A program made the translations under genes and the position numbers. Below are positions 20,108 to 62,255 of a stretch of 64,000 bases of DNA, one piece after another (position 1 is the first letter of the stretch; each line of letters opens with the position of its first letter). Below the pieces are notes generated by a model. That model had not been told where the DNA came from, searched no databases, and was given only the letters and a program-made list of their open reading frames with translations. Source of the stretch: Pseudomonadales bacterium (GTDB lineage: Bacteria; Pseudomonadota; Gammaproteobacteria; Pseudomonadales; Pseudohongiellaceae); NCBI GenBank assembly GCA_036405915.1, contig DASWWP010000053.1:26343-90342 (forward strand), written 5' to 3'.

Positions 20108-20271
20108 CTTTCGGATTTAGCGAGTTTTTCCGCATTCGTTAACGCGGGCATATTTCCACTGTTTGAATGTGGGGGTTTGCCCGATACCTTGCATCTCCCC
20201 CCCTCCGTAACCTCACGCCCACATCAGAACCGGGACATTCCGTCGCGGGCGTATATTCGGGGATGCTTCAA

Positions 20272-20985
20272 ATGGGTGGGATCGTCGGCTATGTGGGTAA
20301 CCGCGAGGCGCGGCAAATTCTCGTCGATTGCCTCGGCCGCCTCGAGAATAGCGACTACGATTCCGCCGGCATGGGCACCGTCGCCGCCGGCAAGCTGAAA
20401 ACGTTGCGCAGCCTCGGCAACACCCTCGCAAGCCAGGCCGGCAACCCGCCGCACCTCGCCAACCTGAAAGCCACGCTGAAGCGCTCACCGCTGAGCGGCA
20501 AGGTAGGCGTTGCGCATGCCTATCGCTCGGCCCGTGGCCAGGTCTACAACGCACATTCGCAGACCGACGGCGCCTTCATCGCCATCGTGCACGACGGCGG
20601 CAGCGACAACGAACGCGCCGTCGCACGCCTGCTCGAGCGCGATGGCAGCGTCGAAGCCATGCTGCCGGACACCGTGAAGGAACTGAGCGGCGATTTCGCG
20701 CTCGTCGGCGTCAGCAAGCATGAACCTGATCGCATCGTCGCGGCACGCCGCGGCGGCAAACCGCTCGTGATCGGCCACCATTACGACGGCTACTTCGTCA
20801 GCTCCGACCTGCCCGCGATCAGCCATTACGCGCGCGCCTGGCAGGTGCTCGAAGACGGCGAAATGGCCGTGATTTCGTACGGCGGCGTGAAGATCTGCAA
20901 GTTCGATGGCACGCAAGTCGAGCGTCCGCTGACGCAATGCCAGGACGAAGCACCGGCCATGATGGCCAGGAGCGCCGTCGGGTGA
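20272..20985 (+). CDS. Stand-alone GlmS-type class II glutamine amidotransferase domain with degenerate catalytic residues (predicted pseudoenzyme)
   Basis: ORF 20167..20985. MGGIVGYVGNREARQILVDCLGRLENSDYDSAGMG parallels GlmS MCGIVGAIA...RLEYRGYDSAG, but Cys1 is Gly. No SIS domains follow. Start chosen at ATG 20272 (GGGGA 8 nt upstream); ATG 20263 is possible. Confidence 0.7.
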   Translation: MGGIVGYVGNREARQILVDCLGRLENSDYDSAGMGTVAAGKLKTLRSLGNTLASQAGNPPHLANLKATLKRSPLSGKVGVAHAYRSARGQVYNAHSQTDGAFIAIVHDGGSDNERAVARLLERDGSVEAMLPDTVKELSGDFALVGVSKHEPDRIVAARRGGKPLVIGHHYDGYFVSSDLPAISHYARAWQVLEDGEMAVISYGGVKICKFDGTQVERPLTQCQDEAPAMMARSAVG

Positions 20986-27260: not shown

Positions 27261-28307
27261 ATGAGAGAAGCATTTCACCAGTACGCCGTTGGCGGTCCGG
27301 CCTATATGCCGGAAGTGCTCCCGGCTGCGCGAAATCCGCGTATTGTCGTGCTGGGTGGCGGCAATGGCCTGTCGACGATGCTGCGCGGTTTGCGGCCGCT
27401 GTACTTTCCGTCGAGCATCAAGACGCCGACGATGGCCGAGCGCGAAGCGCTGACTGCGATCGTCACGGTGGCCGACGATGGCGGCAGCACCGGCCAGCTG
27501 CGCAAGGCCTACCCGATGCTCGCCCCGGGCGACATCCGTTCGTGCCTGCTCGCACTGGCGCGCAACCAGAACACGCTGCAGTCACTGTTCGACTTCCGCT
27601 TCAACGGCGACGTCGGCAGCCACAGCCTCGGCAACCTGATCCTGACCGCGCTCGCGCAGACGGAAGGCGATTTCACGCGCGCAATCGAACGTGCCAGCGA
27701 GCTGCTCGACGTCTGCGGACGCGTGTTGCCGGCGACGAGCGACAACGTCGCGCTGCAGGCGCTGTTCAGCGATGGTACCCAGCTGCGCGGCGAATCAGCG
27801 ATCACGGCAGCGCGCAAGAAGATCGAACGTGTCGAACTCGTGCCGAAGCGTGCCGCGGCGCTGCCGCAGGCGGCTTCCGCACTCGTGAACGCAGACACCA
27901 TCGTGCTCGGCCCCGGCAGCCTGTACACGAGCATCATCCCGACGCTGCTCGTGCCCGGCATCGCCGACGCGATCGCCTCGTCGAGAGCCCGCGTGATCCT
28001 CGTCATGAACCTGATGACCGAACCCGGCGAAACCGACACGTACACGCCGCTCGACTTCCTGCGCGCTCTGCGCCGGCATGCGCCGGGCGTCGTAGTCGAT
28101 TACGTGCTGCAGAACAGCGCGCCGATTCCAAGCCAGCAGCGCGCGCGTTACGACATCAGCGGCGCCACGCAAATCGTCCCGAGCTCGCAGAAATTGCCAG
28201 GCTTCGCCTGCCGCCCGGTGTTCCGTAACCTGTTCACCCACGAGCCGGGCGCGAAGATTCGTCACGATTCCGACAAGCTCGCGCGCGCTATCCTCGAACT
28301 CAGCTGA
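27261..28307 (+). CDS. YvcK / CofD-like (UPF0052, 2-phospho-L-lactate transferase superfamily) protein
   Basis: IVVLGGGNGLSTMLRGL, VTVADDGGSTGQLR, GDIRSCLLALA, GPGSLYTSIIPTLLVPG. Confidence 0.85.
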   Translation: MREAFHQYAVGGPAYMPEVLPAARNPRIVVLGGGNGLSTMLRGLRPLYFPSSIKTPTMAEREALTAIVTVADDGGSTGQLRKAYPMLAPGDIRSCLLALARNQNTLQSLFDFRFNGDVGSHSLGNLILTALAQTEGDFTRAIERASELLDVCGRVLPATSDNVALQALFSDGTQLRGESAITAARKKIERVELVPKRAAALPQAASALVNADTIVLGPGSLYTSIIPTLLVPGIADAIASSRARVILVMNLMTEPGETDTYTPLDFLRALRRHAPGVVVDYVLQNSAPIPSQQRARYDISGATQIVPSSQKLPGFACRPVFRNLFTHEPGAKIRHDSDKLARAILELS

Positions 28308-34995: not shown

Positions 34996-36924
34996 ATGTG
35001 CGGAATAGCCGGAATCTTCGGCATCAACGGGCTGCCAGTGCGGCAGCAAGAACTCGAGCTGATGTGCAATGCCATGATCGCACGCGGCCCGGACGACGCA
35101 GGTTATTTCGTCGACGGCGCGATCGGCCTCGGCATGCGCCGCCTCAGCATCATCGACCTCGCCGGCGGCCACCAGCCAGTCGCCAACGAAGACGGCACGA
35201 TCCAGGTCGTGCTGAACGGCGAGATCTACAACTTCCGCGAACTGCGTAGCCAGCTCCAGTCGCGTGGCCACGTGTTCAAGACCACGAGCGACACGGAAGT
35301 GATCGTCCACGCCTACGAAGAGTATGGCACCGCGTGCGTCGAGCACCTGCGCGGCATGTTTGGCTTCGCGCTGTGGGATTCGGTTAAACGCCAGCTGCTC
35401 GTGGTGCGCGATCGCGCCGGCATCAAACCGCTTTATTACGGCGAATTCGGCGGACGCCTGCTCTTCGCGTCCGAATTGAAGTCGATCCTGGCGCTTGGCC
35501 AGGTGGACCGCGAGCTCAACTGGAGTTCGGTATCACACCTGTTCGCCTTCCTGACGACGCCGCGCGACGAAAGCATCGTGAAAGGCGTGCACAAGCTCGA
35601 GCCGGGACACCTCCTCATCGCTCGCCCGGGCCAGGCGCCCATCGTCCAGCGTTACTGGGACATGGACTTCCAGCCCGATTACGAAACCACCGAGGCACAG
35701 TTCGTCGACAAGCTGCGCGGACTGCTCGAGGAATCGGTAAAGCTGTGCATGATCAGCGACGTACCGCTCGGGGCCTTCCTCAGCGGCGGCATCGACTCCA
35801 GTTCGGTCGTCGCGACGATGTCGCGGCTGTCGGACCGCCCGGTGAAAACCTTTTCGATCGGCTTCCGCGAGCCCGCCTATGACGAATCGGCGCATGCGCG
35901 CCAGGTAGCCGAGGCCTTCGGCACCGAACATCACGAACTGATCCTCGACCCCGACATCTCCGGCTTCCTCGAAGACCTCGCATGGCATCTCGACGAACCG
36001 CTGGGCGATTCCTCCGCGATTCCGACGTACATGGTGTCGAAGCTCGCGGCGCAGCACGTGAAGGTCGTGCTGTCGGGCGACGGTGGCGACGAGCTGTTCG
36101 CCGGATACGAACGCTACGTCGTGGAACGCAACCAGCGTGATCGCCGCGTACCGGGTGTCGTGCGCAGCCTCGGCGGCTTCGTCAGCAGCCTGATGCCAGA
36201 CGGCATGAAGGGCCGGCGCTTCCTGCGCCACCTCGCACTGACCGGCAACGATCGCTACGTCAACTCGATGACGATGTTCGGCCGCGACGACCAGCGTTTC
36301 CTGTTCTGCGAAGGCATCGCGTCGCACATGCTCAAGCAGGATCACTGGCAGGATCTCGCGCAGTACATGTCGAAGGAAGACCACTGGCTGTCGCGCATGC
36401 AGTACCTCGACTTCAAGCACTATCTGCCGCTCGACATCCTGACGAAGGTCGACCGCATGAGCATGGCGCACTCGATCGAAGCACGCGTGCCGCTGCTCGA
36501 CCACAAGCTGTGCGAATTTGCGGCGACGATCCCGCCCGAGATGAAGATGCAGGGCAACAGCACGAAACACATCTTCAAGAAGGCGCTGCGAGGCATCCTG
36601 CCCGACAACGTGCTCGACCGGCGCAAACAGGGCTTCGCCGTGCCGCTCGGCCAGTGGTTCCGTAACGAGCCGCGCGGCTTCCTGCACGACCTGCTGCTGT
36701 CCGACCGCAGCCGCGCGCGGGGAATTTTCAACAGCGACTACATCGAACGCATGCTTGCGATCCACCAGCGCGGACGCGCGATGGATCTCGAACTGTGGAC
36801 GCTGATCAGTTTCGAACTGTGGTGCCGCCGCTTCCTCGACAGCCCGGTGACCTTTGCCGCGCGCAAACCGGCGCGCGCACCCGAAGCAGGCTTCAGCGAC
36901 GTCCCCGCCACACAATATTCCTGA
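34996..36924 (+). CDS. Asparagine synthase (glutamine-hydrolysing) family amidotransferase, copy 1
   Basis: MCGIAGIFG Ntn nucleophile, RGPDD, NGEIYN, PP-loop FLSGGIDSS. Confidence 0.9.
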   Translation: MCGIAGIFGINGLPVRQQELELMCNAMIARGPDDAGYFVDGAIGLGMRRLSIIDLAGGHQPVANEDGTIQVVLNGEIYNFRELRSQLQSRGHVFKTTSDTEVIVHAYEEYGTACVEHLRGMFGFALWDSVKRQLLVVRDRAGIKPLYYGEFGGRLLFASELKSILALGQVDRELNWSSVSHLFAFLTTPRDESIVKGVHKLEPGHLLIARPGQAPIVQRYWDMDFQPDYETTEAQFVDKLRGLLEESVKLCMISDVPLGAFLSGGIDSSSVVATMSRLSDRPVKTFSIGFREPAYDESAHARQVAEAFGTEHHELILDPDISGFLEDLAWHLDEPLGDSSAIPTYMVSKLAAQHVKVVLSGDGGDELFAGYERYVVERNQRDRRVPGVVRSLGGFVSSLMPDGMKGRRFLRHLALTGNDRYVNSMTMFGRDDQRFLFCEGIASHMLKQDHWQDLAQYMSKEDHWLSRMQYLDFKHYLPLDILTKVDRMSMAHSIEARVPLLDHKLCEFAATIPPEMKMQGNSTKHIFKKALRGILPDNVLDRRKQGFAVPLGQWFRNEPRGFLHDLLLSDRSRARGIFNSDYIERMLAIHQRGRAMDLELWTLISFELWCRRFLDSPVTFAARKPARAPEAGFSDVPATQYS

Positions 36925-41274: not shown

Positions 41275-43239
41275 ATGTGCGGCATCGCCGGCATCCTGAA
41301 ATTCAATTCGCAAGACAACATCGACGAATCTCGCCTGCTGGCCATGCGCGACAGCGTATGGCACCGCGGGCCCGACGAAGGCGGCCTGATCATCGACGGC
41401 CGCGCCGGGCTCGCGCATCGCCGCCTGTCGATCATCGACCTCGCGAGCGGCCAGCAGCCGATGAGCAATGCGCAGCGCACGGTGTGGATCTCGTACAACG
41501 GCGAGGTCTACAACTTCCGCGAACTGCGCACGAGGCTCGAAGCCCTCGGCGCGCGCTTCTCGACGCGTTCCGACACCGAGGTCGTGCTGCGTGCATACGA
41601 GTATTACGGCGAAGACTGCGTCGAGCACCTGCAGGGCATGTTCGCATTCGCCATCTGGGACGCGCCGAAGCAGCGCCTGTTCCTCGCGCGCGACCGCCTC
41701 GGCATCAAGCCGCTGTACTACATGATCTCCGACACGCAGCTGCTGTTCGGCTCCGAGATCAAGGCGATTCTGGCCGAAGGCAGCGTCAAACCCGAATTCA
41801 ACCGCGCCGTGCTGCCCGAGTTCCTTGCGAGCCGCTACGTCACCGGTTCCGAGACCTTCTTCAAGGGCGTCAACAAGCTGCTGCCGGGCCACACGCTGTC
41901 GTGGACGGCGAGCACCGGTTTCCGCAAACGCCGCTACTGGAACCTGTCGGCCGCGCCGCAGGGCCCCGAGCTGTCGCGTGCCGACTACGTCGACATGGTG
42001 CGTTCGAGCCTGAAGGACGCCGTCCAGAGCCACATGATCGCCGACGTGCCGTGCGGCCTGTTCCTGTCGGGCGGCCTCGACTCGAGCATCCTGGCGTCGC
42101 TGATGACGCAGGTGTCGAGCGAACCGGTGCACAGTTTCTCCGTGGCATTCAGCGAGGCACATGCGAACGAACTGGAATATGCGCGCATGGCGGCGCAGCA
42201 CGCCGGCACGCAGCATCACGAGGTGATGGTGTCGCCGGAAGAATTCTTCTCGGCGCTGCCGCACCTTGTGTGGCATGAGGACGAGCCGGTGGCATGGACA
42301 TCGAGCGTGCCGCTGCACGCGGTGTCTTGCCTCGCCCGCAAGCACGTGAAAGTGGTGCTTACCGGCGAAGGCTCAGACGAACTGTTCCTCGGCTACGACT
42401 ACCGCTATCGCGTCACGCACTGGAACAAGCGCCTCGGCGCGATGTACGAAAAACTGCCGCGCGCGATGCGCTCCGGCGTCAGCGGCGCGATCGGCGCGCT
42501 GCCAGGCAGCGCCCGCCGCTATGCCGAGCGCACCTTCCTCGCGCTCGACACCGATCCGCGCCACATGTTCTTCGAGAACTTCTCGGTGTTCCGCCATGAC
42601 CTGCGCAACGCGATGCTGCGACCGGAGCATGGCTTCACGGACAACCCGTACGTCAATGCGCTGAAGCATTACCACGCAGCGGGCGACAACACGCTGCAAT
42701 GCATGAGCCACGCCGACCTGCAGACCTTCCTCGTGGAGCTGCTGATGAAACAGGACCAGATGAGCATGGCTGCGTCGATCGAAAGCCGCGTGCCATTCCT
42801 CGACCACCGCCTCGTCGAACAGGTCGCGACGATCCCGTCGCACGAGAAGCTGCGCTTCTGGCAGACGAAGGCCCTGTTACGCGATGCAGTGAAAGACCTG
42901 GTACCGCGCGCGATCCTCGAACGCAAGAAGATGGGATTCCCGGTGCCGACAAGCGACTGGCTGCGCGGCAAGTACTGGCCCGTCGTCGAGGAATTCGTGC
43001 TCGGGGGCCGTGCGCTCGAGCGCGGCCATTTCAATGCCGATGTCGTGCAGCGCCTCGCGCAGGATCATCGCAGCGGCCGCGCTGACAATGGCGAACGGCT
43101 GTGGCTGCTGATCAACCTCGAAATGTGGCAGCGCATCTTCCTCGACGGTGAAAAGCCAGCTGATCTGTATCCGCGCCAGAAGCCCGTGCTGAGCGAATTC
43201 GCAAGCGAATTCCCGCAGCCCGCGCTCGCCTTGCACTGA
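41275..43239 (+). CDS. Asparagine synthase (glutamine-hydrolysing) family amidotransferase, copy 2
   Basis: MCGIAGILK, RGPDE, NGEVYN, PP-loop FLSGGLDSS. Confidence 0.9.
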   Translation: MCGIAGILKFNSQDNIDESRLLAMRDSVWHRGPDEGGLIIDGRAGLAHRRLSIIDLASGQQPMSNAQRTVWISYNGEVYNFRELRTRLEALGARFSTRSDTEVVLRAYEYYGEDCVEHLQGMFAFAIWDAPKQRLFLARDRLGIKPLYYMISDTQLLFGSEIKAILAEGSVKPEFNRAVLPEFLASRYVTGSETFFKGVNKLLPGHTLSWTASTGFRKRRYWNLSAAPQGPELSRADYVDMVRSSLKDAVQSHMIADVPCGLFLSGGLDSSILASLMTQVSSEPVHSFSVAFSEAHANELEYARMAAQHAGTQHHEVMVSPEEFFSALPHLVWHEDEPVAWTSSVPLHAVSCLARKHVKVVLTGEGSDELFLGYDYRYRVTHWNKRLGAMYEKLPRAMRSGVSGAIGALPGSARRYAERTFLALDTDPRHMFFENFSVFRHDLRNAMLRPEHGFTDNPYVNALKHYHAAGDNTLQCMSHADLQTFLVELLMKQDQMSMAASIESRVPFLDHRLVEQVATIPSHEKLRFWQTKALLRDAVKDLVPRAILERKKMGFPVPTSDWLRGKYWPVVEEFVLGGRALERGHFNADVVQRLAQDHRSGRADNGERLWLLINLEMWQRIFLDGEKPADLYPRQKPVLSEFASEFPQPALALH

Positions 43240-51535: not shown

Positions 51536-51667
51536 CCTCGCGCGCAGGCAACACCTGAACCTCGAGCGTGATCGCTCGACCAAAAATGCGTGGATCACCT
51601 CAGTGATCAGCAGAGCTCGACGCGAAATACTCGCGCCCCACCACAGGTTCACAAGGGGACACTCCAC

Positions 51668-52561
51668 ATGAAAGCTCTGTTTGCCGCTGGCCTTCTGTTC
51701 GCATCCGCTACCGCGCTCGCACAGCCCGTCGCATGGCCGTATGCCGAGGAAGAAGGCATCCACTGGATCGAAGGGAAGACCGTCAACATCACCTATTCGC
51801 ATACCGACGCACCGGCGACCGTGACGCAGGCGATGGCGAACCAGGTGCTGGCCGACGTCGAGGCGCGTTTGAACGGCCTCGGCATCTCGGGACTGAACGT
51901 AACGATCGGGCGCCGTGACATCACGACGGCCTGTTCGTACCGCGAACGCAACTCGGTCCATATCTGCTGGGAACCGCGTGACGGCCGCCGCGCCGACTCG
52001 ATCAACACCGGTTACACCGACGGCAGCGAATTCTGGCGCGAAGGCCTCATCATCCTCGGCAACCAGGCCGACTGGACGGACCAGACGCGTCCGCTGTACC
52101 AGCAGGTGCAGCACTATCTGCTGCACATCCTCGGCTTCGCCCATCCGGAACGCGAACCCGATCGCGCCATTTCCGTCATCAACAACAACTCGCTGGACCT
52201 GACCCAGCTCGACATCGACGGCCTGCGCACGATGTACGGCGGCGGCCGCTGCGCGTTGCGGTATGAATCCAACGGCACCGTGCGCGTCCCGTTCGTGATG
52301 TACCAGGGCAGCGCCTACACCGCGCGTCTGCAGCACGACGGCGGCCGTGGCCTGACGATCGTGCCGGGCAGCCTCGGCCGCTACGGCAACGCCAGCTTCA
52401 ACGTCAGCAAGCCGATTCCGACTACGCCGTGCCACGGCCTTTCGATCGACGGAAGCGGCGAATTCCATGTTCCCGAAGTATGGATCGGCGGGCAGTTGCG
52501 CTGGGCCACGCTGCGGATGGCGAACGGCGGATTCACCGTCACGAATTCGGGCGTGAAATAA
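51668..52561 (+). CDS. Secreted matrixin-like (metzincin-like) protein with HYxxHxxGxxH motif, copy 1
   Basis: Part of ORF 51590..52561. Signal peptide MKALFAAGLLFASATALAQP. IHWIEGKTVNITYS, QHYLLHILGFAHP, LDIDGLRTMYG. Unassigned ~110-aa C-terminal domain. Confidence 0.6.
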   Translation: MKALFAAGLLFASATALAQPVAWPYAEEEGIHWIEGKTVNITYSHTDAPATVTQAMANQVLADVEARLNGLGISGLNVTIGRRDITTACSYRERNSVHICWEPRDGRRADSINTGYTDGSEFWREGLIILGNQADWTDQTRPLYQQVQHYLLHILGFAHPEREPDRAISVINNNSLDLTQLDIDGLRTMYGGGRCALRYESNGTVRVPFVMYQGSAYTARLQHDGGRGLTIVPGSLGRYGNASFNVSKPIPTTPCHGLSIDGSGEFHVPEVWIGGQLRWATLRMANGGFTVTNSGVK

Positions 52562-52619
52562 CGCGCCGCGCCGTACCGGAATCCATACTCACAACAAACT
52601 ACATATGCGGGGATCCATC

Positions 52620-53474
52620 ATGAAATTGTCAGCCTCCTGTTTATTCGCAGCAGCAACGCTCGTGTCCGGCATCGCGTTCGCGCAGCCGGCGCCCTACTCG
52701 GCCCAGGAACGCATCCACTGGATCGATGGCCAAACGGTGACGATCACGTACTCGCCCGCCGGCGCGCCGGCGCAGGTATCGAGCGCAGCGGCAGCCAAGG
52801 TGCTTGCCGACATCGAGGCGAAATTCGACAGCCTCGGCATCGCCGGCCTCGACGTCGCGATCGGCAACCGCGAAGTCGCGAATGGCTGTGCCGGCGTGGG
52901 CCGCAATACCGTGCACATCTGCTGGGAGCCGCGCACCGGCACGACGGCAGACGCACGCAACACCGGCAATACCGACGGTTCGGTGTTCTGGCGCGAAGGC
53001 ACGATCATCCTGTCTTCGTCGACGACGTGGACCGAAGCATCTGTATACGCGACGCTTATGCACTACATGCTGCACGTGCTCGGCTTCGGCCATCCGGTGG
53101 GGGACTCCGTGCAGAACGGCGCGGCAGACCTGACGGCGCTCGACATCAGCGGCCTGCAGACGATGTATGGCGCCGGCTCCTGCGCGCTGACCTATGACGC
53201 GACCCTGCGCCAGGTGGAAATTCCGTTCGTGAAATATCGCGGCGGCACGTATACCGCGCGGCTGCAGCACAATGGCGGCAACGACTTCACGATCGTGCCT
53301 GGCAGCATTGGCATGCTGAATTCGGCGAACATGCCGACTTCGCGCTGCCATGGCCTCGCGATCGACGCCAACAACGACCTGTACATCCCGCAGGTGAACG
53401 TCGGTAACAGCCTGTTCTGGGCCAACCTGCGATTCGAGAATGGCCGCCTGACGCTGACCGGCCGCGGCCAGTAA
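52620..53474 (+). CDS. Secreted matrixin-like (metzincin-like) protein with HYxxHxxGxxH motif, copy 2
   Basis: Part of ORF 52605..53474. Signal peptide MKLSASCLFAAATLVSGIAFAQP. IHWIDGQTVTITYS, MHYMLHVLGFGHP, LDISGLQTMYG. Collinear with copy 1. Confidence 0.6.
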   Translation: MKLSASCLFAAATLVSGIAFAQPAPYSAQERIHWIDGQTVTITYSPAGAPAQVSSAAAAKVLADIEAKFDSLGIAGLDVAIGNREVANGCAGVGRNTVHICWEPRTGTTADARNTGNTDGSVFWREGTIILSSSTTWTEASVYATLMHYMLHVLGFGHPVGDSVQNGAADLTALDISGLQTMYGAGSCALTYDATLRQVEIPFVKYRGGTYTARLQHNGGNDFTIVPGSIGMLNSANMPTSRCHGLAIDANNDLYIPQVNVGNSLFWANLRFENGRLTLTGRGQ

Positions 53475-53550
53475 CCACGCCACACGAAATCGGGGCCAGT
53501 CCTGCATCGATCGACGTTCGATCGGTGCGGGGCTGGCCCCGAACTCATTT

Positions 53551-53979
53551 TCAGGCCCTTTTGATTGCCGCCCAGAACGTCGCGCGCACGAGCGTGTGCC
53601 CGGGCCGGCTTTCGATCCGGAATTCATCGGCCATGCGGTTGATGCCGGGCAGGCCGAGGCCTGGATCGCCCGAGCTCGAGTAGCCGGCGAGCATCGCCTC
53701 GTTCAGGTCGGCGATGCCGGGGCCCTCGTCCCATGCCACGATGCTGAGTCCCGCGCGCGAGCCATTCGAACAGAAGCCGAGCCGGATCTCGCCGGTTTTC
53801 GCGTACGTGAGGATGTTGCGTGCGAGTTCGGAGATGGCGGTCGTGACCATCAGCACGCGCGGGGCGGGAAATTCGAGTTGCAGCGCAAGCGCCCTGCCTT
53901 CGGCGCGCGCCTGTGCGATCACGTCGACGCTGCCGGGTTCCTCGAGGCGGAAACGGGTGAGCGTCTGCAAATCCGTCAT
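53551..53979 (-). CDS. Orphan RsbT-type serine kinase (HATPase_c_2) paralogue
   Basis: TAISELARNILTYAKTGEI, DEGPGIADL, GYSSSGDPGLGLPGINRMADEF. About half the positions match the operon-encoded RsbT at 58872..59351 by eye. Confidence 0.8.
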   Translation of the reverse strand: MTDLQTLTRFRLEEPGSVDVIAQARAEGRALALQLEFPAPRVLMVTTAISELARNILTYAKTGEIRLGFCSNGSRAGLSIVAWDEGPGIADLNEAMLAGYSSSGDPGLGLPGINRMADEFRIESRPGHTLVRATFWAAIKRA

Positions 53980-54052: not shown

Positions 54053-57031
54053 TTACTGCGCGCGAATCACGGCGTCCTTGACGGTGCCGCCCACCGAGTA
54101 CAACAGTGCGGCGGCGCGCAGCGTCGTCGTGGCCCGCGCAGGGCTCGAGTAGAACGCTACACCATTCTTCACGTAGCTGACGACACCATTTTCCACGGTG
54201 ATACGTAACGTATCGCCTTCGTTGAACGTGGTGTCGGCCATGTACTTGCCGCTGTCACGCGCTTCGGCGATGTTGCCCTGCAGGCGCAGGCTGTAGGCAA
54301 GCGTGGCGCCGTCGGAGCTCAGGCCGATGTAACGTACCTTGTCTTCGACCGTCGCGCTGATCTGCATGGAGCCGTTGCCGTTCTCGATGCTCTGCGTTGC
54401 AACTGCCATCGCATCGGCGCAACCGTCGCAGCCGGCGCTCTTGCGCACGCGGCCTTCTTCGGCCGTCACGTTGATGAGGTTGCTCCAGGTCACCGCGCTG
54501 ACCGGCGTCGCGATCTGCGCGCCGGCGATGCCGCTGCCCGTCGAGTACAACGCCACGTCGCCGCGCAGTACGGCAGCCGGTGCCGCGGTGCTGGTGTAGA
54601 ACACCGTGCCGTTCTTCGCGTAATTCACCTTGCCGCCGTCCACAGTGATACGGAACACATCGCCAGCGACGAAGGTCGTATCCCACTTGTACACGCCGTT
54701 TTCACGCACTTCCACAGCGGTGCCCTGCAGGCGCAGTGCATAGTCGATGTCCAGTGCGGTCGGGCCGGTATTACGCGCGCCGAGGCCGATGAAGCGCAGG
54801 CTGTCTTCGACCGTGGCGGTGAACTCCAGGTAGCCGCGGCCTTCGATTTTCTGCATCGATACCGCGCCCGCGTCGGAACAACCGTCGCAACCGCTCATCT
54901 TGCGCACCCAGCCGTTCGCGTCGCCGAAGGTATTGACGGTTTCCGTCCACGCGATCGGGGCAGGCGTACCGGACAGCGGCGTGCCGGCCGTGATGGTGTA
55001 GTCGGGCGAAGTCGCGACGTTGCCGGCGGCATCGCGCGAGCGCACGCGGTAGTGGTAGACCTTACCCGGCGAGAGGCCGGCCAGTTCGACAGCGTGGTGC
55101 ATGTCGAACGTGGCGCTGATCGTCGTTACCCGCTCGTACGCGGTCGTCAGTCCGTACTCGACGCGCTGCTGTGCGGGTTCGTTCGTCGACCAGTTCACTT
55201 TCACGCTGCTCGAGCCCGTGTTCGTCGCGCGGATGTTCGTCAGCAGCGGCGCGGCCAGGTCCTCACCACCGACGTTCGGCAGCAGGCCCGGCGTCGTGAA
55301 GGTCTGGTTGGCCGAGTAGCTTGCATTGCCGTCCGCATCGGCCGACTGCACGCGGTAGTGGTACGTCGTGCTCGGCTTGAGACCCATCAGGATGTGGGCG
55401 TGCGTCGTGCCGGTCTTGGCGCCGAGCGAGGCCGTCAGGCCGTACGCGGTCGTCGTGCCGTATTCGATGCTGCCGTCGGTGACTTCGCTCGTCTGCCATG
55501 CAATCGCAGCGGCGTTGCTGGTGATCAGGCCGGCGCTGACGTTGCTGATCTGCGGCGGCGTTGCGTCGCCCGTTTTCGACGGCCACGTCGGCGCGGGAGC
55601 CGGAACAGGCAGTGTCGGAGTGGCTTCCGATCCTGGCGCGGGAGCCGGTGCCGGGGCGGGAGCCGTGATCGGCGCGCCGTTCGTCAGCAATTGCGACGGC
55701 ACTTTCACGAGGAAGGCGTCGAGGCGCGAGCCGCCCATGTTGCTGGTCCAGATGAAGTACTGGCCGGTGACGTCGAGGTTGCCCTTAGGCATGTTGTCGT
55801 AGTCGTCGGTCTTGCGGCTGTCGAGGTTCGTCATGACGGGCGCGACGACCAGCGTGCGGCCCGAGCCATCGAGCATGAAGCAGACGATTTCGTTCGATTC
55901 GCCAGCGTTGCGGCGGTTCGCGCTGCTGCCGCAGGAATACTGCGATGCCGGGCTCGCGTTCAATGCGTTCGTGTGCGTGACGTGGTTCGGCGCGCCGACG
56001 TTCCAGTCGGTGTTCGAATACGCGACTACACCGCTCAGCGTGCTCTTGTTGAAGTCCCAGACTTTCCAGGTGTTCGCTTTCGGCGCCCAGTTGTCGTTCG
56101 CCACCATGTAGCCGAAACCGAGGTCGGAATGGCCGCCGGCGCCGTCACTGTCGCGCAGCAGGCGTTCGCTGCCGGTCGCGAGGTCGATGATGCGGTTGTC
56201 TTCACCTTCGGCGCCGTCGACGTTTTCCTTGATCACGAGCCACTTGCCGCTCCTGTCGATCTGGCACTCGTCGTAGTCGCCCTTCTTCGGGAAGTACTGC
56301 AATTTGCCGGTGTCGGTTTCATAAGCCATGCAGCCCAGCGACGCGTAGGTCGTCGAGTCCTTGATCGTGGCCGAATGCACGCGGTCGTCGTTGCTCGAAT
56401 GGATCTGGAAAACGATGCGGTTCGCGCCGAGCTTGGCGGATACGTCGACGATGGTCTCGTACTGCTTCGTCATCACGTCATAGCGCAGGATCTTCGAGCC
56501 GGAGTGCAGGTAGATCTTGGTCGGTAGTGTCGCGCTGAAGTAATAGCCTTCGCCGCTGGCACCGGAATACGCCGTGTTCGAATCGAAAACGGGGCCGAGG
56601 TTCGTCAGTTGCTCGGTGACCTTGTTGTACTGCAGCAGCGTCAAACCGGCGCCGCCCTTGGTCTTGTTCAGCCCGATCATGATCAGCATCGTGTCCTTGC
56701 CGACATGGTTGTTGATGTTGCGCCAGTACGAATAGCCAATCGCGCTGACGCAGTCGGCGCCGCCGCAATCGGCGGCATTCGTCAGGCGCACGCCCTGCGT
56801 GTTGTAGGGCGCCGGGAACGTGAACTTGCCCTTGCTTGGAAGGAAGGAATTTATCTGCGACGGCGACAGCAGCGGCTCGACGACGTTGCTCAGCGTGGCT
56901 GGCAATTCGACGAATCCGCCGAGCACCTGGGACTGCGCTGCGACGGGAGCAAGGCTGAAGAGAAGCGAGAAAACTGATGGAACGAGCGTATGGGCGCGGA
57001 GGAGGCGCGCCGCCGGTGGAAACGAAAACAT
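54053..57031 (-). CDS. Large secreted multidomain protein: propeller-like N domain, Pro/Ala linker, two Fn3 domains, two LamG/concanavalin-like repeats
   Basis: 992 aa. Signal peptide (..APVAAQ|SQ). aa ~35-450 unassigned, beta-rich. APITAPAPAPAPAPG linker. Two Fn3 units (IEYGTTTAYG..TTYHYRVQSADADGN and VEYGLTTAYE..KVYHYRVRSRDAAGN). Two ~150-aa C-terminal repeats. Confidence 0.8.
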   Translation of the reverse strand: MFSFPPAARLLRAHTLVPSVFSLLFSLAPVAAQSQVLGGFVELPATLSNVVEPLLSPSQINSFLPSKGKFTFPAPYNTQGVRLTNAADCGGADCVSAIGYSYWRNINNHVGKDTMLIMIGLNKTKGGAGLTLLQYNKVTEQLTNLGPVFDSNTAYSGASGEGYYFSATLPTKIYLHSGSKILRYDVMTKQYETIVDVSAKLGANRIVFQIHSSNDDRVHSATIKDSTTYASLGCMAYETDTGKLQYFPKKGDYDECQIDRSGKWLVIKENVDGAEGEDNRIIDLATGSERLLRDSDGAGGHSDLGFGYMVANDNWAPKANTWKVWDFNKSTLSGVVAYSNTDWNVGAPNHVTHTNALNASPASQYSCGSSANRRNAGESNEIVCFMLDGSGRTLVVAPVMTNLDSRKTDDYDNMPKGNLDVTGQYFIWTSNMGGSRLDAFLVKVPSQLLTNGAPITAPAPAPAPAPGSEATPTLPVPAPAPTWPSKTGDATPPQISNVSAGLITSNAAAIAWQTSEVTDGSIEYGTTTAYGLTASLGAKTGTTHAHILMGLKPSTTYHYRVQSADADGNASYSANQTFTTPGLLPNVGGEDLAAPLLTNIRATNTGSSSVKVNWSTNEPAQQRVEYGLTTAYERVTTISATFDMHHAVELAGLSPGKVYHYRVRSRDAAGNVATSPDYTITAGTPLSGTPAPIAWTETVNTFGDANGWVRKMSGCDGCSDAGAVSMQKIEGRGYLEFTATVEDSLRFIGLGARNTGPTALDIDYALRLQGTAVEVRENGVYKWDTTFVAGDVFRITVDGGKVNYAKNGTVFYTSTAAPAAVLRGDVALYSTGSGIAGAQIATPVSAVTWSNLINVTAEEGRVRKSAGCDGCADAMAVATQSIENGNGSMQISATVEDKVRYIGLSSDGATLAYSLRLQGNIAEARDSGKYMADTTFNEGDTLRITVENGVVSYVKNGVAFYSSPARATTTLRAAALLYSVGGTVKDAVIRAQ
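54056..54955 (-). repeat. Internal tandem duplication encoding two ~150-aa domains, each with a GCDGC motif
   Basis: GWVRKMSGCDGCSDAGAVSMQKIE..ATVEDSLRFIGL..YALRLQG..FRITVDGGKVNYAKNGTVFY versus GRVRKSAGCDGCADAMAVATQSIE..ATVEDKVRYIGL..YSLRLQG..LRITVENGVVSYVKNGVAFY. Confidence 0.8.
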
Positions 57032-57522: not shown

Positions 57523-58497
57523 ATGAGAGACGACAAAGAAGGAAAACGCGGCCTGGCCCCCGTAAAGACGGCGCGGCGCGTAGGGCAGCGGCCACAGTAT
57601 CTGGCCAGTGAGGAGCTGTTGAGCCCGCCTGTCGATGAATCCTACATTGAAGTTCTGCGCGAACTCGTCGCTCACCTGCGCCAGAAGCGTACCGAACTGC
57701 GCGAGGAATGGGCCCGCCGCATCATGCAGGCGCGACTGTTGAAGGCGATGACCGAGGACGAGATCCTCGCCGAGTGTTCGGCCGTATACGACAACTACCT
57801 CGGTACGCTCGAAACCGGTTCGCTCGAAGCCCTCGAAGCCTACGCTCGCGACCTTTCCGAACGCATCATTCCGCGTGGCGTCGAAACGCATGAGGTACTC
57901 GGCATCGTACTGCTGCTGAGGGACGTACTCGCCCGCTCGCTGTTCGCGAAGTACGGCCACAACGAAAGCATCCTGTTCCGCGTACTCGACGCGTACGAAC
58001 CGGCTGCAAACAGGATCGCAAACACGGTGGCCGTCGGCTTCGTGCAGGAGCGCGAACGCGTCATCCGCCAGCAGCAGGAAGCCATTCGCGAACTGTCGAC
58101 TCCAGTATTGCCGGTACGCGAACGCCTGCTGATTCTTCCCATCATCGGCATCATCGATCCGCAGCGCGCGCGCCAGCTTACTGAACAGGTACTGCGCGGC
58201 ATCCGCGTGAACCGCGCACGCGTCGTCGTAATGGACCTCACCGGCGTACCGTCGGTCGACGCGGCCGTTGCAAACCATCTTGTCCAGACCGTGGAAGCCT
58301 CGCGCCTCGTCGGCGCGAACGTGATCGTGACGGGCCTGTCGCCCGAACTGTCGCAGACCCTCGTCACGATCGGCGTGGACCTCGGCAAGATGTTCACGGT
58401 GGGCGACCTCCAGGGCGGTATCGAAGAAGCCGAAAAACTCCTCGGCTACAAGGTCGTACCGATGAATCCCAAAAACGACTTCTCGTCGGTAGGCTAA
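57523..58497 (+). CDS. rsbR: RsbR-type stressosome sensor (N-terminal helical sensor domain + C-terminal STAS)
   Basis: ELSTPVLPVRERLLILPIIGIIDPQRARQLTEQVL, VVVMDLTGVPSVDAAVANHL, GANVIVTGLSPELSQTLV. Confidence 0.85.
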   Translation: MRDDKEGKRGLAPVKTARRVGQRPQYLASEELLSPPVDESYIEVLRELVAHLRQKRTELREEWARRIMQARLLKAMTEDEILAECSAVYDNYLGTLETGSLEALEAYARDLSERIIPRGVETHEVLGIVLLLRDVLARSLFAKYGHNESILFRVLDAYEPAANRIANTVAVGFVQERERVIRQQQEAIRELSTPVLPVRERLLILPIIGIIDPQRARQLTEQVLRGIRVNRARVVVMDLTGVPSVDAAVANHLVQTVEASRLVGANVIVTGLSPELSQTLVTIGVDLGKMFTVGDLQGGIEEAEKLLGYKVVPMNPKNDFSSVG

Positions 58498-58501
58498 GGC
58501 T

Positions 58502-58879
58502 GTGGAAATCCCAATTCTCAAACAGCGGGATTATCTGATCGCATCGGTGCAGTCCGTACTGACCGACGAGGATCTGGTGAATCTGCGCGACAAGCTTGTC
58601 CAGCAGGTGGGCCGCTACCGTTCCGACGGCGTGATCCTCGACGTAACCGGCATGGATGTAATCGATTCCTTCTCCGTGCGCACGCTTCGCGACCTTGCGC
58701 ACATGATTCGCCTGCGCGGCGCGACGACCGTGATCGTCGGCATCCAGCCCGAGGTTGCCTTTTCGATGATCCAGCTCGGCCTGCGCCTGAAAGACGTGCC
58801 GACCGCCCTGGATCTCGAGGAAGGCCTCGCGTATCTCGACCGCAAGAAAGGGAAAAGGACGCTGCCGCCGCATGAGTGA
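58502..58879 (+). CDS. rsbS: RsbS-type STAS-domain stressosome scaffold / antagonist
   Basis: GTG start. IPILKQRDYLIASVQSVLTDEDL, VILDVTGMDVIDSFSVRTL (conserved Ser), VIVGIQPEVAFSMIQLG. Confidence 0.85.
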   Translation: MEIPILKQRDYLIASVQSVLTDEDLVNLRDKLVQQVGRYRSDGVILDVTGMDVIDSFSVRTLRDLAHMIRLRGATTVIVGIQPEVAFSMIQLGLRLKDVPTALDLEEGLAYLDRKKGKRTLPPHE

Positions 58880-59351
58880 GAAACCACCCAGCCTGCCTTT
58901 CGGGTCAGGAGGCGCCGGTACGATTCCCGGCGGCAAGAACAGCCCCCGCGACGTGCGCGTAGAAGCACGGGTCACGATCAAGGCTGTCGAAGACATCGTG
59001 GAAGCACGGCAAAAAGGCCGCGCACTGGCGCAGGAGCTCGGGTTCTCGATGACCCAGTCCACGCTCGTCGCGACCGCCATTTCCGAGCTCGCACGCAACA
59101 TCGTGCTGTATGCGAAGACCGGCGAAATCATCCTCTCGCGCGTCAGCACGGATCATCACGTAGGCCTCATCATCATCGCCGCGGACAAAGGTCCCGGCAT
59201 AGCCAATATCCAGCATGCGCTGATGAGCGGTTATTCCTCGTCCGGCGGGCTTGGCCTCGGCCTTCCCGGCGTTCGGCAGATGGTCGACGAGTTCGACATC
59301 AAGAGCCGCCCGGGCGAAGGGACGCAGGTTACCGCGCTGATGTGGTTGTAA
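58872..59351 (+). CDS. rsbT: RsbT-type serine/threonine kinase
   Basis: Overlaps the rsbS end by 8 nt. TAISELARNIVLYAKTGEI, DKGPGIANI, GYSSSGGLGLGLPGVRQMVDEF. Confidence 0.88.
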   Translation: MSEKPPSLPFGSGGAGTIPGGKNSPRDVRVEARVTIKAVEDIVEARQKGRALAQELGFSMTQSTLVATAISELARNIVLYAKTGEIILSRVSTDHHVGLIIIAADKGPGIANIQHALMSGYSSSGGLGLGLPGVRQMVDEFDIKSRPGEGTQVTALMWL

Positions 59352-59379
59352 GGCGCGTGCGCGCGAAGGACGGCAGGGA

Positions 59380-59988
59380 ATGAAGAAGACCGGCATCGTG
59401 GAGTGGTCGGTGCGAGAACGCACGCTTCCCGGAGAGACCTATTCCGGCGACCGCTGCCTCGTGAAGGAAGTTTGGGAAGGCGTACTGATCGCCGTCATCG
59501 ACGGCATCGGGCACGGCGAAGAAGCTGCGAAGGCGGCCGACTGCGCGGTGGCCACGATCGAAGAGAACGCCGACCGCTCGTTTTCGCTGCTGCTGCAGAA
59601 ATGCCATGCGAACCTGCAGAAGACGCGCGGTGTCGTCATGAGCCTCGCGTACGTCGATGACCAGAGAACGATGACGTGGATGGGCGTCGGCAACGTGGAA
59701 GGCCGGCTTATCCGGCGCCGCATACAGTACTCGGACAAGACCGAGGCACTGCTGCTGCGCACCGGCGTCATCGGCGGCGATGCGGAGTTCACGCCGAGCT
59801 TCTACCCGCGAGGGCTCGCGCTCGTGCGTGGCGACCTGCTGATCATGGCGACCGATGGCATCAGGAGCGACTTCGACGTCGATGTCGACATCGCCTCGGG
59901 TCCCCGGCGGATCGCGGACGATATCATCGAAAACAAGTGCAAACCGAATGATGACGCACTGGTCTTCGTCGGCCGGTATACCGGATAG
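59380..59988 (+). CDS. rsbX: RsbX-like PP2C/SpoIIE-family phosphatase
   Basis: 202 aa. SGDRCLV, IAVIDGIGHGEEAA, LIMATDGI, DDALVFVGRY. Confidence 0.8.
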   Translation: MKKTGIVEWSVRERTLPGETYSGDRCLVKEVWEGVLIAVIDGIGHGEEAAKAADCAVATIEENADRSFSLLLQKCHANLQKTRGVVMSLAYVDDQRTMTWMGVGNVEGRLIRRRIQYSDKTEALLLRTGVIGGDAEFTPSFYPRGLALVRGDLLIMATDGIRSDFDVDVDIASGPRRIADDIIENKCKPNDDALVFVGRYTG

Positions 59989-59996
59989 AACCTGGG

Positions 59997-60932
59997 ATGG
60001 GGATCCAACTGAACGTGGCCGAGAACCTGAACGACTTTTCCAGCCAGTATCAGAAGATGCTGAAGAGATACCTGCTGGAGGGCGGCGAAGAATATTTGCA
60101 CGGCGCGTACGAGCTCGGGCGCAAGGCGCTGGGCGGCGGGCTGGGCCTGCTCGACATCACGTATGCACACCAGGCCGCATTGCCCGTGCTGCTGCAGAAT
60201 ACCGAAGACGACCGGTTCCTGCTGCTCGTGCGCGCAGCCAACCGCTTTCTCGACGAGACGCTGTCACCATTCGAAGTCTCGCGCCTGAGCAGCATGGATG
60301 CGAACTCCGCGCTGCGGCGCCTGTACGATGTGCTGGAAGAAGAAGCCAAGCGCATCGCGCACGTGCTTCATGACGATGCCTCGCAGCTGCTCGCGGTGGC
60401 CTACCTGGAACTCGCGGACATCGTGCGCACGTCGCCGGGCCCGGTGGCCGAACGCGTCGGCGTCGTCATCACGCACCTCGACGAGATACGCGAACAGATT
60501 CGCCGGCTGTCGCACGAACTGCGGCCGCTGATTCTCGACCAGCTTGGCCTCGTGCCGGCCCTGAACTTCCTCGCGAACGGCTTCACGAAGCGCTCGAGCC
60601 TCCAGATCGTGATCACAGGCGATACCGGCGGCCGCCTGCCGCAGGCCATCGAGACGGTGCTGTATCGCTGCGTGCAGGAGGCCCTGAACAACGTGAACCG
60701 CCATGCAAAGGCGACACGCGTGGACATCAAGGTGTGGGTCGAGGACGAATGCATCCACTGCGTCGTGCGCGACAACGGAGTTGGTTTTGAGGTACCCGAG
60801 GACCGGAAACGCATGTTCCGCGGCCTCGGTCTGGTAGGCATACATGAGCGCGTGGGTGCGCTCCATGGTGAATGCAAACTTTCATCCGCTCCTGGAGAGG
60901 GAACGGAACTGCAGGTGGTGATCCCGCTATGA
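59997..60932 (+). CDS. Soluble histidine kinase: RsbU_N-like N-terminal domain + HisKA_3 + HATPase_c
   Basis: N-terminus FSSQYQKMLKRYLLEGGEEYLHGAYELGRKAL...DITYAHQAALPVLL parallels my recollection of the RsbU N-terminal (RsbT-binding) domain. H-box RIAHVLHDDASQLL. N-box QEALNNVNRHA. G-box DNGVGF, GLGLVGIHERV. No TM segment. Confidence 0.8.
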   Translation: MGIQLNVAENLNDFSSQYQKMLKRYLLEGGEEYLHGAYELGRKALGGGLGLLDITYAHQAALPVLLQNTEDDRFLLLVRAANRFLDETLSPFEVSRLSSMDANSALRRLYDVLEEEAKRIAHVLHDDASQLLAVAYLELADIVRTSPGPVAERVGVVITHLDEIREQIRRLSHELRPLILDQLGLVPALNFLANGFTKRSSLQIVITGDTGGRLPQAIETVLYRCVQEALNNVNRHAKATRVDIKVWVEDECIHCVVRDNGVGFEVPEDRKRMFRGLGLVGIHERVGALHGECKLSSAPGEGTELQVVIPL

Positions 60933-61573
60933 ACGTAGACATGAAGAAACACATCGTACTTGCCGACGACCATTCCATGTTCCGCCAGGGCCTGGCCGCG
61001 CTTCTCGAACGGGAAGGCTTCCACGTCGTGGGCCAGGCCACCAACGGCCACGAAGCGATCCAGCTCGTGCAGCAGCACAAACCGCTGCTCGCGATCCTCG
61101 ACTTCGGCATGCCGCTGCTGAACGGCATCGACGCCGCGCGCGAGATCCACAAGCGCGCACCGGATACGCAGGTATTGCTCCTCACGATGTTCGAGGACGA
61201 TGCCTATGTGCTCGAGGCTCTGCGTGCCGGCATCCGTGGCTACGTGCTGAAGGCGCAGGCCGCGCGCGACCTGATCAATGCGATCAGCGAAATCCTGCGA
61301 GGTTCGATCTACCTCAGCCCCGGCATCTCCGAGGCGGTGGTGAAGGCCTACATGTCGAAGGACGAACAGCCCGCGGAAGTGCTGACCGATCGCGAACGCC
61401 AGGTGCTGCAGCTGATCGCCGAAGGGCATACGACGAAGAAGACGGCGTCGCTGCTCGACCTCAGCGTCAAGACCGCCGAGTCGCATCGCACGCGCATCAT
61501 GCAGAAGCTCGACATTCACGACACGGCGGGCCTCGTGCGCTACGCAATCCGCCGCGGCCTGATCAAGCCCTGA
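60929..61573 (+). CDS. NarL/FixJ (LuxR-type HTH) response regulator 1
   Basis: ATGA overlap with the kinase gene. LADDHSMFRQGL, ILDFGMP, LLLTMF, YVLK, LTDRERQVLQLIAEGHTTKKTA. Confidence 0.9.
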   Translation: MNVDMKKHIVLADDHSMFRQGLAALLEREGFHVVGQATNGHEAIQLVQQHKPLLAILDFGMPLLNGIDAAREIHKRAPDTQVLLLTMFEDDAYVLEALRAGIRGYVLKAQAARDLINAISEILRGSIYLSPGISEAVVKAYMSKDEQPAEVLTDRERQVLQLIAEGHTTKKTASLLDLSVKTAESHRTRIMQKLDIHDTAGLVRYAIRRGLIKP

Positions 61574-61610
61574 GGCGCAACACCATCCACCCGGGGCGGT
61601 CTTTGCCGAC

Positions 61611-62255
61611 ATGATACGGATTCTGCTGGCGGACGATCACGCGTTGTACCGCGAAGGACTGCGCCTGCTCCTCGAGCGGGCCGGCTCGTTCACGATCGTC
61701 GGCGAAGCAGCCGACGGCGGCGAAGCCGTGCGCCTCGCCTTCGAACTGCTGCCTGACGTGATCCTGCTGGACATCAGCATGCCGGTTTACAACGGCATCG
61801 AAGCGACGGCGCGGATCCGCAAGGCCTGGCCGCACGCCAAGATCGTGCTGCTATCTATGCATGAAGACGAAACGACGATCCTCGAAGCCCTGAAGGCCGG
61901 CGTGAACGGCTACGTGTTCAAGACGCAGACGGAGCGCGACCTCGTGCACACGATCGAAGTCGTCGCGGACGGCGCATTCTTCCTTGGCCCGAACATTCCG
62001 CACAGCGTGATCGACGCGCTGACGCACAATGCGTCGCATGTATCCGATGCGCTGACGGAGCGCGAACAGCAGATCGTCGCGCTGATCGCTGACGGGAAAA
62101 CCTCGCGTGAGATCGCGGAGATCCTTCACCTGAGCCCGAAAACCATCGAGTCGCACCGCGCGCGAATCATGCAGAAATTGAAGCTCCAGCAGACGACCCA
62201 GCTCGTCTGTTACGCCGTGCGCGCGCAGATGCAGCGTCTCGCACCTCTTCGTTAA
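61611..62255 (+). CDS. NarL/FixJ (LuxR-type HTH) response regulator 2
   Basis: LADDHALYREGL, LLDISMP, VLLSMH, YVFK, LTEREQQIVALIADGKTSREIA. Confidence 0.9.
   Translation: MIRILLADDHALYREGLRLLLERAGSFTIVGEAADGGEAVRLAFELLPDVILLDISMPVYNGIEATARIRKAWPHAKIVLLSMHEDETTILEALKAGVNGYVFKTQTERDLVHTIEVVADGAFFLGPNIPHSVIDALTHNASHVSDALTEREQQIVALIADGKTSREIAEILHLSPKTIESHRARIMQKLKLQQTTQLVCYAVRAQMQRLAPLR

Follow-up and report, generated by a model that had tools for sequence, protein, structure and literature searches.

We analysed a stretch of 64,000 nucleotides, hereafter the window, from contig DASWWP010000053.1 of a Pseudomonadales bacterium (assembly GCA_036405915.1). Our subject is a pair of tandem genes, A and B, predicted to encode secreted matrixin-like pseudopeptidases in which the general-base Glu of the zinc site is replaced by Tyr (HY type); they represent clades A and B, respectively, of a small protein family. 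Coordinates are those of the window, and features lie on its + strand unless stated otherwise. Related proteins are designated by P numbers and related contigs or loci by L numbers. As a first-pass annotation of the sequence had noted, gene A (51668-52561) encodes 297 residues and gene B (52620-53474) 284 residues, in tandem on the + strand. The products, judged by eye to be about half identical, are 50% identical and colinear over their full length according to BLASTP (E 8e-103). Mechanical calling of open reading frames picks in-frame upstream starts, GTG 51590 for A and ATG 52605 for B, which would add 26 and 5 residues ahead of the signal peptide and would spoil signal-peptide prediction. 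The internal ATGs at 51668 and 52620 are the likely starts, because GGGGA is found 6-8 nt upstream of each and the orthologues begin at the same MK.. residues. These Shine-Dalgarno-like elements, read from the sequence, are located at 51655-51659 for A (8 nt before the ATG) and at 52609-52613 for B (6 nt before). The GC content at third codon positions (GC3) is 0.81 for A and 0.83 for B, and is similar in neighbouring genes. The product of gene A is 100% identical to P0001, and its orthologues are 55-83% identical. That of gene B is 100% identical to P0054, the NCBI hypothetical protein VGE69_04510 [Pseudomonadales bacterium], and 77-86% identical to its clade-B orthologues P0055-59.

Both products begin with a hydrophobic segment that closes with ALA (A) or AFA (B) directly before a Gln, as read from the sequence and from a crude hydropathy calculation, in agreement with the Sec signal peptides proposed earlier. 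The predicted Sec-type signal peptide of A covers residues 1-18 (MKALFAAGLLFASATALA, then Q; 51668-51721) and that of B residues 1-21 (MKLSASCLFAAATLVSGIAFA, then Q; 52620-52682), both cleavage sites being predicted from the sequence. The mean hydropathy of residues 1-18 of A is 1.97, versus -0.38 in the remaining protein, and the Gln at +1 of the predicted cleavage site is nearly invariant in the family. Processing of B as a lipoprotein via Cys7 was considered and rejected: there is no lipobox or hydrophobic stretch ahead of Cys7, and the AFA-Gln junction suits signal peptidase I. The four Cys already described as conserved are indeed invariant across the family, and correspond in A to C89, C100, C195 and C255. 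B has one additional Cys, within its signal peptide.

The zinc-site motif of A is HYLLHILGFAHP (H149-Y150-LL-H153-IL-G156-FA-H159; 52112-52144), with Tyr150 (codon TAT, 52115-52117) at the position of the general-base Glu. That of B is HYMLHVLGFGHP (H148-Y149-ML-H152-VL-G155-FG-H158; 53061-53093), with Tyr149 encoded by TAC (53064-53066). These two motifs, reported by the first-pass annotation as HYxxHxxGxxH with Tyr for Glu, are the only open-frame matches to HxxxHxxGxx[HD] in a six-frame translation of the window. They have the ligand spacing of the metzincin clan (HxxxHxxGxxH/D) and align with HELGHSLGLSH of matrix metalloproteinase 1 (MMP-1), while the general-base Glu of the clan (HExxH) is Tyr in both. 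The clade-B motif MHYMLHVLGFGHPVGDSVQNG is identical in 6/6 clade-B sequences. In the first family alignment of 17 sequences, H149, H153, G156, H159, P160 and the four Cys are invariant, as are W101, E102, R104, D118, W123, E125, W136, T137 and D182. When distant relatives are added, the three His are still invariant and G156 is nearly so. Alignment with canonical relatives reveals no Met at the Met-turn position in A or B, although this Met belongs to the clan definition; the earlier remark that no clear Met-turn is visible was thus correct. The triplet aligned to the S-[LIVM]-M of the canonical relatives reads SVI in A, SVQ in B and S[VI]L in other members. The counterpart in A would be S169-V170-I171 (52172-52180), with Met replaced by Ile, as judged from motif spacing relative to P0023, P0027, P0032 and P0050; this assignment is tentative, as the loop past the third His is modelled at low confidence (predicted local distance difference test, pLDDT, about 45).

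An AlphaFold2 (AF2) model of A was obtained with a pLDDT of 80.3 and a predicted template modelling (pTM) score of 0.77. Residues ~22-192 (51731-52243), which include C89 and C100, are modelled as a matrixin-fold, metzincin-like domain. Five strands (39-43, 78-80, 96-102, 109-117 and 122-131) and three helices (54-70, the active-site helix 143-155, and 180-190) follow one another in metzincin order, in agreement with the fold that defines the clan (a five-stranded sheet with one antiparallel edge strand and helices A, B and C). When this model was compared with the PDB using Foldseek, the top 50 matches were all catalytic domains of MMP-1/7/8/9/10/11/13/20, with a probability of 1.0, E values from 1.8e-5 to 1e-3 and a target-normalised template modelling score of 0.53-0.67. 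The profile of the 17-member family matches MMP-1 at E 5.4e-5, HyllHvlGfaH lying over the MMP-1 motif and Tyr on its catalytic Glu; the match of the profile to astacin is weak (E 0.056). The corresponding domain of B, delimited by colinearity with A and by the family alignments, would span residues ~25-185 (52692-53174) with C90 and C101. Because of the family-profile match to MMP-1 and the Foldseek probability of 1.0, the likeness to matrixins is beyond chance, and the N-terminal domain has a matrixin-type metzincin fold, as the first-pass annotation had supposed. The segments on which that proposal was partly based, IHWI.G.TV.ITYS, LDIDGLRTMYG and LDISGLQTMYG, are all present. The evidence for metzincin identity is weak for single sequences and is clear once homologues are included: phmmer of a single sequence against PDB sequences places MMP-1 at E 1.3, and the gathering threshold of Pfam PF00413 (Peptidase_M10) is missed, A scoring 14.4 bits versus a cut-off of 24 (E 0.035) and B giving no match. 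Nor do A and B have all the attributes of matrixins. The residue after the third His is Pro (HP), not Ser, and no latency prodomain with a cysteine switch (PRCGxPD) is found, only ~20 residues without Cys separating the predicted cleavage site from the first strand. A and B would best be filed as a new family of metzincin-fold pseudopeptidases, and not as matrixins, because the Glu and the Met-turn Met are missing and the score is below the Pfam M10 threshold.

The family is very small and undescribed. A word-indexed search of 5.8 billion clusters retrieved 16 proteins for query A and 11 for query B, and an exhaustive hidden Markov model search of 1.84 billion representatives gave 37 matches at E <=1e-3, only 5 of them at E <=1e-30. 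The wider alignment A3, used against the 5.8-billion collection with the 8000 most word-rich candidates scored, returned fewer members than the single queries. All family matches are metagenome or metagenome-assembled genome proteins without a name. The family appears to be absent from reference genomes, at least for the A type, because a scan of the 185,579 GTDB species representatives with the pattern [LV][LM]H[IV][LV]G[FL][AST]HP gave 23 pattern matches and no relative; the pattern is of A type and would miss the GFGHP of B. Distant relatives are informative as to the origin of the family. P0023, P0026, P0027, P0032, P0036 and P0050 share with A and B the two-domain architecture and the positions of the four Cys, and carry a canonical HExxHxxG/AxxH. 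A Met-turn S-[LIVM]-M is present in P0023, P0026, P0027, P0032 and P0050, P0036 having SVL, and the PF00413 cut-off is passed by P0027, P0032 and P0050 and narrowly missed by P0023 and P0036. The family profile finds these canonical two-domain relatives at E 6e-19 to 8e-4. Since they combine the same architecture and Cys with HExxH and, mostly, a Met-turn, the family appears from sequence comparison to descend from ordinary-looking two-domain metzincins with HExxHxxGxxH.

Within the family, the residue at the Glu position is E in P0019 only, Q in P0017, P0018 and P0061, H in P0014 and P0016, N in P0015, and Y in 16/16 clade-A and 6/6 clade-B sequences, i.e. in 22/22 of the A/B clades. The first-pass annotation had reasoned that homologues with Glu at this position would make A and B simply two decaying copies. 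A homologue with Glu does exist (P0019), and others have Q, H or N, but this touches the argument in form only: it shows descent from active-type metzincins and not decay. In a neighbour-joining tree rooted on the HE relatives (100 bootstraps), the family is monophyletic (100/100) and so is the Y clade made up of A and B (99/100); the E/Q clade branches off at the base, and the sister group of the Y clade is the Q/H/N clade. The residue at this position is encoded by CAC in L008, by TAC in seven genes of the Y clade and by TAT in gene A of the window. The branching order fits a path of single-nucleotide changes, GAR (E) to CAR (Q) to CAY (H) and then to TAY (Y) or AAY (N). Because the order of the tree matches this codon path, the general base was probably lost early, the position then drifting among polar residues and Tyr being fixed once, before the A/B duplication. 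A and B are most probably ancient tandem paralogues. Identity is 44-56% between the A and B clades and ranges over 45-83% in the Y clade. In the basal clade, the sister relatives P0019 and P0061 have HELMH and HQLLH, respectively, and are otherwise similar. Because they differ at the catalytic position, the Glu/Gln switch in this clade was either recent or repeated. P0019 might be the sole potentially active member of the family.

Both copies are, as far as computation goes, under purifying selection and not decaying. The ratio of nonsynonymous to synonymous substitution rates (dN/dS), calculated by the Nei-Gojobori method on close orthologue pairs (n=6), is 0.15-0.26 for the whole gene. For the protease-like domain it is 0.07-0.23 across the pairs (0.07-0.16 in five of six), and for the C-terminal domain 0.25-0.38 (0.29-0.38 in five of six). 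The protease-like domain is clearly lower in 5/6 pairs; in the remaining one, gene B of the window with its L004 counterpart, the values are nearly equal (0.23 vs 0.25). Constraint is thus usually strongest in the very domain that looks broken. Tyr is retained across a synonymous TAT/TAC difference, and tandem orthologues of both paralogues are found in contigs L002, L003, L004-L006 and the P0004 contig. The view of the first-pass annotation that the Glu-to-Tyr change reflects selection and not decay is well borne out, with orthologues of both proteins carrying the same motif, a dN/dS of about 0.2 and a protease-like domain that usually has the lower value.

The unassigned C-terminal domain of ~110 residues described in the first-pass annotation is equally orphan in our searches, with no match in Pfam, NCBIfam, PDB or BFVD. 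In A, it is modelled by AF2 as an all-beta domain of ~105 residues (~193-297; 52244-52558) containing C195 and C255 and two hairpin-meander repeats. By comparison with A, the all-beta domain of B would extend over 53175-53471, with C188 and C243. The two halves of the A module are similar to each other, reading ..VRVPFVMYQGSAYTARLQH..LTIV.. and ..FHVPEVWIGGQLRWATLRM..FTVT.., and the consensus of the module is ..NNCAA..LxLHIPxIxYxGxxYWADLQY..FTL..C..LSSDxKLHIPVxxxxGxSYWADLQY..FTLTGAGQN. A separate AF2 model of the domain (pLDDT 80) had no significant structural match, the best E being 0.35 in PDB and 0.11 in BFVD. A resemblance to propeller blades or to the RSL lectin was considered; the similarities were weak and not significant, and were not used. 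According to the family profile, the module makes up the very C-terminal end of secreted proteins that are otherwise unrelated and have Kelch, Lcl_C, GH39, sortilin/BNR, Peptidase_M64 or BACON domains, and as 4-8 tandem copies in giant proteins (P0024, P0029, P0031, P0035, P0037, P0040, P0044, P0048, P0051 and P0052 are the proteins carrying it). Modules for targeting, anchoring or ligand binding typically have such a distribution, and sorting, anchoring or binding could be the role of this one.

A and B come after an exopolysaccharide (EPS) cluster of ~30 kb, of Wzx/Wzy type and on the same strand, and before stressosome genes, a location correctly given by the first-pass annotation. The EPS cluster contains genes for a Wzz-like protein, an AAA_31 kinase-like protein, a Bac_transf priming transferase, Wzy_C, a flippase and several glycosyltransferases (GT4/GT2/GT1). 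It further includes an acetyltransferase, a polysaccharide deacetylase, two Asn-synthase paralogues (34996-36924 and 41275-43239), a heparinase II/III-like protein, a UDP-glucose dehydrogenase, a beta-helix protein and an epimerase. Three unusual genes are also located there (20167-20985, 21238-22422 and 27261-28307): one encodes a 272-aa protein matching only the N-terminal amidotransferase part of GlmS, one has a sub-threshold match to the PEP-CTERM-system-associated outer-membrane protein TIGR03016, and one belongs to the CofD/YvcK family. The locus resembles exosortase-type EPS loci, though no exosortase was found among the ORFs scanned.

Downstream of B, a terminator-like GC hairpin (53528-53541) with a T-run (53528-53551 in all) precedes a convergent gene; it was found by a consensus scan and is a pattern match only, 2 such sites being found versus 1.5 expected. 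The convergent gene encodes a 142-aa HATPase_c_2 protein, RsbT/RsbW-like (53551-53979, - strand), and is directly downstream of, and co-oriented with, a gene for a predicted secreted protein of 992 aa with an Ala-Pro linker, two fn3/Pur_ac_phosph_N domains and two C-terminal repeats of ~130 aa (54053-57031, - strand). A cytoplasmic-type switch kinase beside a secreted giant protein is an odd pairing; it is kept in L004-L006 and in the P0004 contig. In L001 the gene for the ~1000-aa protein is present and the small kinase gene is missing, and the L002 contig ends too early. A stressosome-like module follows (57523-62255), with genes for an RsbR-like STAS protein (57523-58497), a STAS (RsbS) protein (58502-58879), an RsbT-like kinase (58872-59351), a SpoIIE/PP2C phosphatase (59380-59988) and an RsbU_N-HisKA_3-HATPase kinase (59997-60932). 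This module is followed by three LuxR-type response regulators in the syntenic locus L004. It seems that the stressosome here has a two-component system as its output, and not a sigma-B cascade. The order of the last EPS glycosyltransferase, A (then B), the convergent HATPase_c_2 gene with the ~1000-aa secreted protein, and the RsbR/S/T genes is conserved in the window, L001, L002, L004-L007 and the P0004 contig, to 60% identity, which comprises every clade-A/B contig long enough. P0014, P0018 and P0019 sit in unrelated neighbourhoods. Because of these unrelated contexts in the sister clades, the EPS link suggested by the position of A and B has to be downgraded: the association is a property of one lineage, not of the family, and constitutes a weak hint only.

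Taken together, A and B are probably, though far from certainly, catalytically inert zinc-site pseudopeptidases whose role is to bind, perhaps with A and B working as a pair. Homology to active peptidases is combined in them with replacement of an essential catalytic residue, and they are maintained by selection, with a dN/dS of 0.15-0.26 and an identical motif in all orthologues. The proteins would be exported by Sec, the signal peptide being cleaved before the conserved Gln, and would fold outside the cytoplasm with two disulfides, for which the domain-wise conservation of the Cys suggests the pairs C89-C100 and C195-C255. The invariant ligands H149, H153 and H159 would continue to coordinate a metal, most likely zinc. 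In the established metzincin mechanism, it is the residue following the first His that faces the water bound to the metal. Tyr150 lies one residue past the first His on the active-site helix, where the carboxylate of Glu activates the zinc-bound water. Judging from the metzincin mechanism, its phenol could cap the metal or fill the space of the catalytic water and of S1', by which peptide hydrolysis would be abolished or strongly reduced. The preserved cleft may then hold a ligand without cutting it, for instance an acidic group or a stretch of peptide chain from a surface or matrix protein, while the C-terminal beta domain would provide targeting or anchoring. Several points weigh against this interpretation. 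The inactivity is deduced from the missing Glu alone, and the strict conservation of Tyr in 22 sequences, with A and B clades only 44-56% identical, would also fit a specific chemical role for this residue. The loop past the third His is modelled at low confidence (pLDDT about 45) and should not be interpreted structurally. A model in which A and B regulate an active cousin has no local partner, as no active canonical metzincin paralogue is encoded within the 64-kb window, where the other HExxH strings occur only in antisense frames of known genes. Finally, A and B do not always occur as a pair: only one copy is present in L001, and in L007 the copy is followed only by the convergent gene.

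Other explanations have to be weighed against inert binding proteins. That A and B are decaying or recently inactivated protease genes, or that their metzincin-like motif arose by chance, deserves hardly any credence. The general base and the Met-turn Met are missing, and Pfam scores are below threshold (14.4 bits vs 24 for A, none for B), as this explanation would have it. However, the reading frames are intact with normal GC3, dN/dS is about 0.2 with a protease-like domain at least as constrained as the C-terminal one in every close pair, orthologues of both copies have identical motifs, identities of 45-83% testify to the age of the Y clade, and both the structure comparison and the profile give significant matches to MMPs. 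Within the reach of computation, decay or chance is refuted. In our judgement it is rather unlikely that A and B have remained active as zinc hydrolases and work by a non-canonical mechanism. The general base would then be Tyr150, in the form of a zinc-lowered phenolate, or else E102 or E125, acting on a peptide or on a non-peptide substrate such as an EPS substituent. This could account for the strong purifying selection on the three His, the Gly and the whole protease-like domain, for the invariant Tyr in the A and B clades and for the invariance of E102 and E125 in the first family alignment, and the same-strand EPS cluster upstream has acetyltransferase and deacetylase genes in this lineage. 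However, sister clades carry Q, H or N in place of Tyr with the rest of the site equally conserved, which looks like tolerance after catalysis was lost, E125 is not a compensating change, and the EPS context is missing for P0014, P0018 and P0019. To our knowledge, no metzincin uses Tyr as base, and a text search of the literature found 'HYxxH' in no paper. A migrated general base (E125 of the W-R-E motif, or E102) was considered separately and rejected as compensating: E or D at position 125 is common in HE relatives and is lacking in P0061 (HQ).

We also hold it to be unlikely that A and B belong specifically to the EPS/matrix machinery of this lineage, as a zinc-dependent binder or organiser of EPS or of the ~1000-aa secreted fn3 protein that might link the matrix state to the stressosome. 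This idea is a special case of the binding pseudopeptidase, not an alternative to it. It draws on the gene order conserved in the window, L001, L002, L004-L007 and the P0004 contig, and on the co-occurrence of the C-terminal module with the glycan-related domains GH39, BACON, Kelch and BNR. However, all syntenic contigs come from one lineage, so that the order may be inherited and not functional, members outside the A/B clades are in unrelated contexts, and the C-terminal domain has no significant structural match to a lectin or carbohydrate-binding module (best E 0.35, probability below 0.2). Quite improbable, finally, is the most far-reaching proposal, that the His3-Tyr site is a new functional metal centre: either a zinc-tyrosinate able to bind or chemically modify acidic ligands or non-peptide substrates, or a zinc with a switchable tyrosine cap, with A and B as a pair at the cell surface perhaps coupling the EPS/matrix state to the ~1000-aa protein and the stressosome. 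If true, the metzincin active site would here have been put to a use without known precedent.

Most of the known inactive homologues of zinc proteases come from animals (ADAMs, M14 CPX proteins), and their bacterial roles are largely unexplored. The binding pseudopeptidases proposed here would offer a clean natural system to ask what a metzincin cleft serves once it is unable to cut, and they expose an unannotated C-terminal beta module common to many secreted proteins. The practical impact is modest, since the hosts are uncultured and the family is rare.

It is useful to compare A and B with known systems. With matrixins (M10A, PF00413; MMP-1 1fbl, MMP-8, MMP-13) they share the fold, the HxxxHxxGxxH spacing, the D-I-D-G-[IL]-x-x-[ML]-Y-G helix C and a domain opening with a W....[LI]TY strand. 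They differ from them by Tyr for Glu, the lack of a Met-turn Met and Pro for Ser after the third His. A cysteine-switch prodomain is lacking too, and no His/Asp of structural zinc and calcium sites can be made out, a conserved C89-C100 pair being there instead. Sequence identity amounts to only 13-21%, and the Pfam threshold is missed. Serralysins (M10B) also have Pro after the third His (HExxHxxGxxHP). In serralysins and astacins (M12A), a Tyr is the fifth zinc ligand, and a Tyr-zinc contact is therefore chemically normal in the clan. However, this liganding Tyr comes from the Met-turn segment (SxMxY) and Glu is present, whereas A and B have no RTX or CUB-type accessory domains. Also close are the canonical relatives P0023, P0026, P0027, P0032, P0036 and P0050, likely active ancestors or cousins of the family. 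They have a signal peptide, a metzincin domain with the same two Cys and the same two-Cys C-terminal beta domain; unlike A and B, they keep HExxH, most of them have S-[LIVM]-M, and three reach the PF00413 threshold.

Precedents among proteins regarded as inactive speak for the pseudopeptidase interpretation. ADAM7 (HQLGH) and ADAM29 (HHLGH) have the base replaced and the three His kept, and are regarded as non-catalytic binding or adhesion proteins (PMC11266112). In these M12B members, only the general base is replaced, and their Q and H are the states of the sister clades described here. In contrast to A and B, they are membrane proteins of eukaryotes, contain disintegrin and EGF domains and retain the Met-turn Met; no Tyr variant occurs among them, and the kinship exists only at the clan level. 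In the M14 pseudo-carboxypeptidases AEBP1/ACLP, CPXM2 and CPD domain III, the general base E270 has become Y270 (PMC11266112, Table 2). The route from Glu to Tyr towards a conserved and functional, though non-catalytic, extracellular protein is the same, whereas the fold is that of a funnelin carboxypeptidase and some zinc ligands are lost, all three being kept in A and B. Substituted HExxH sites are common, conserved and non-random across zincins (PMC3650047), and the pseudopeptidase tables of the 2024 review contain no row for the M10 family (PMC11266112). Inactive zincin homologues with retained metal ligands are thus already known as a kind. What A and B would add is a bacterial, secreted two-domain family, a Glu-to-Tyr change within the HExxH motif, a readable series from E through Q and H to Y, and an unannotated C-terminal module.

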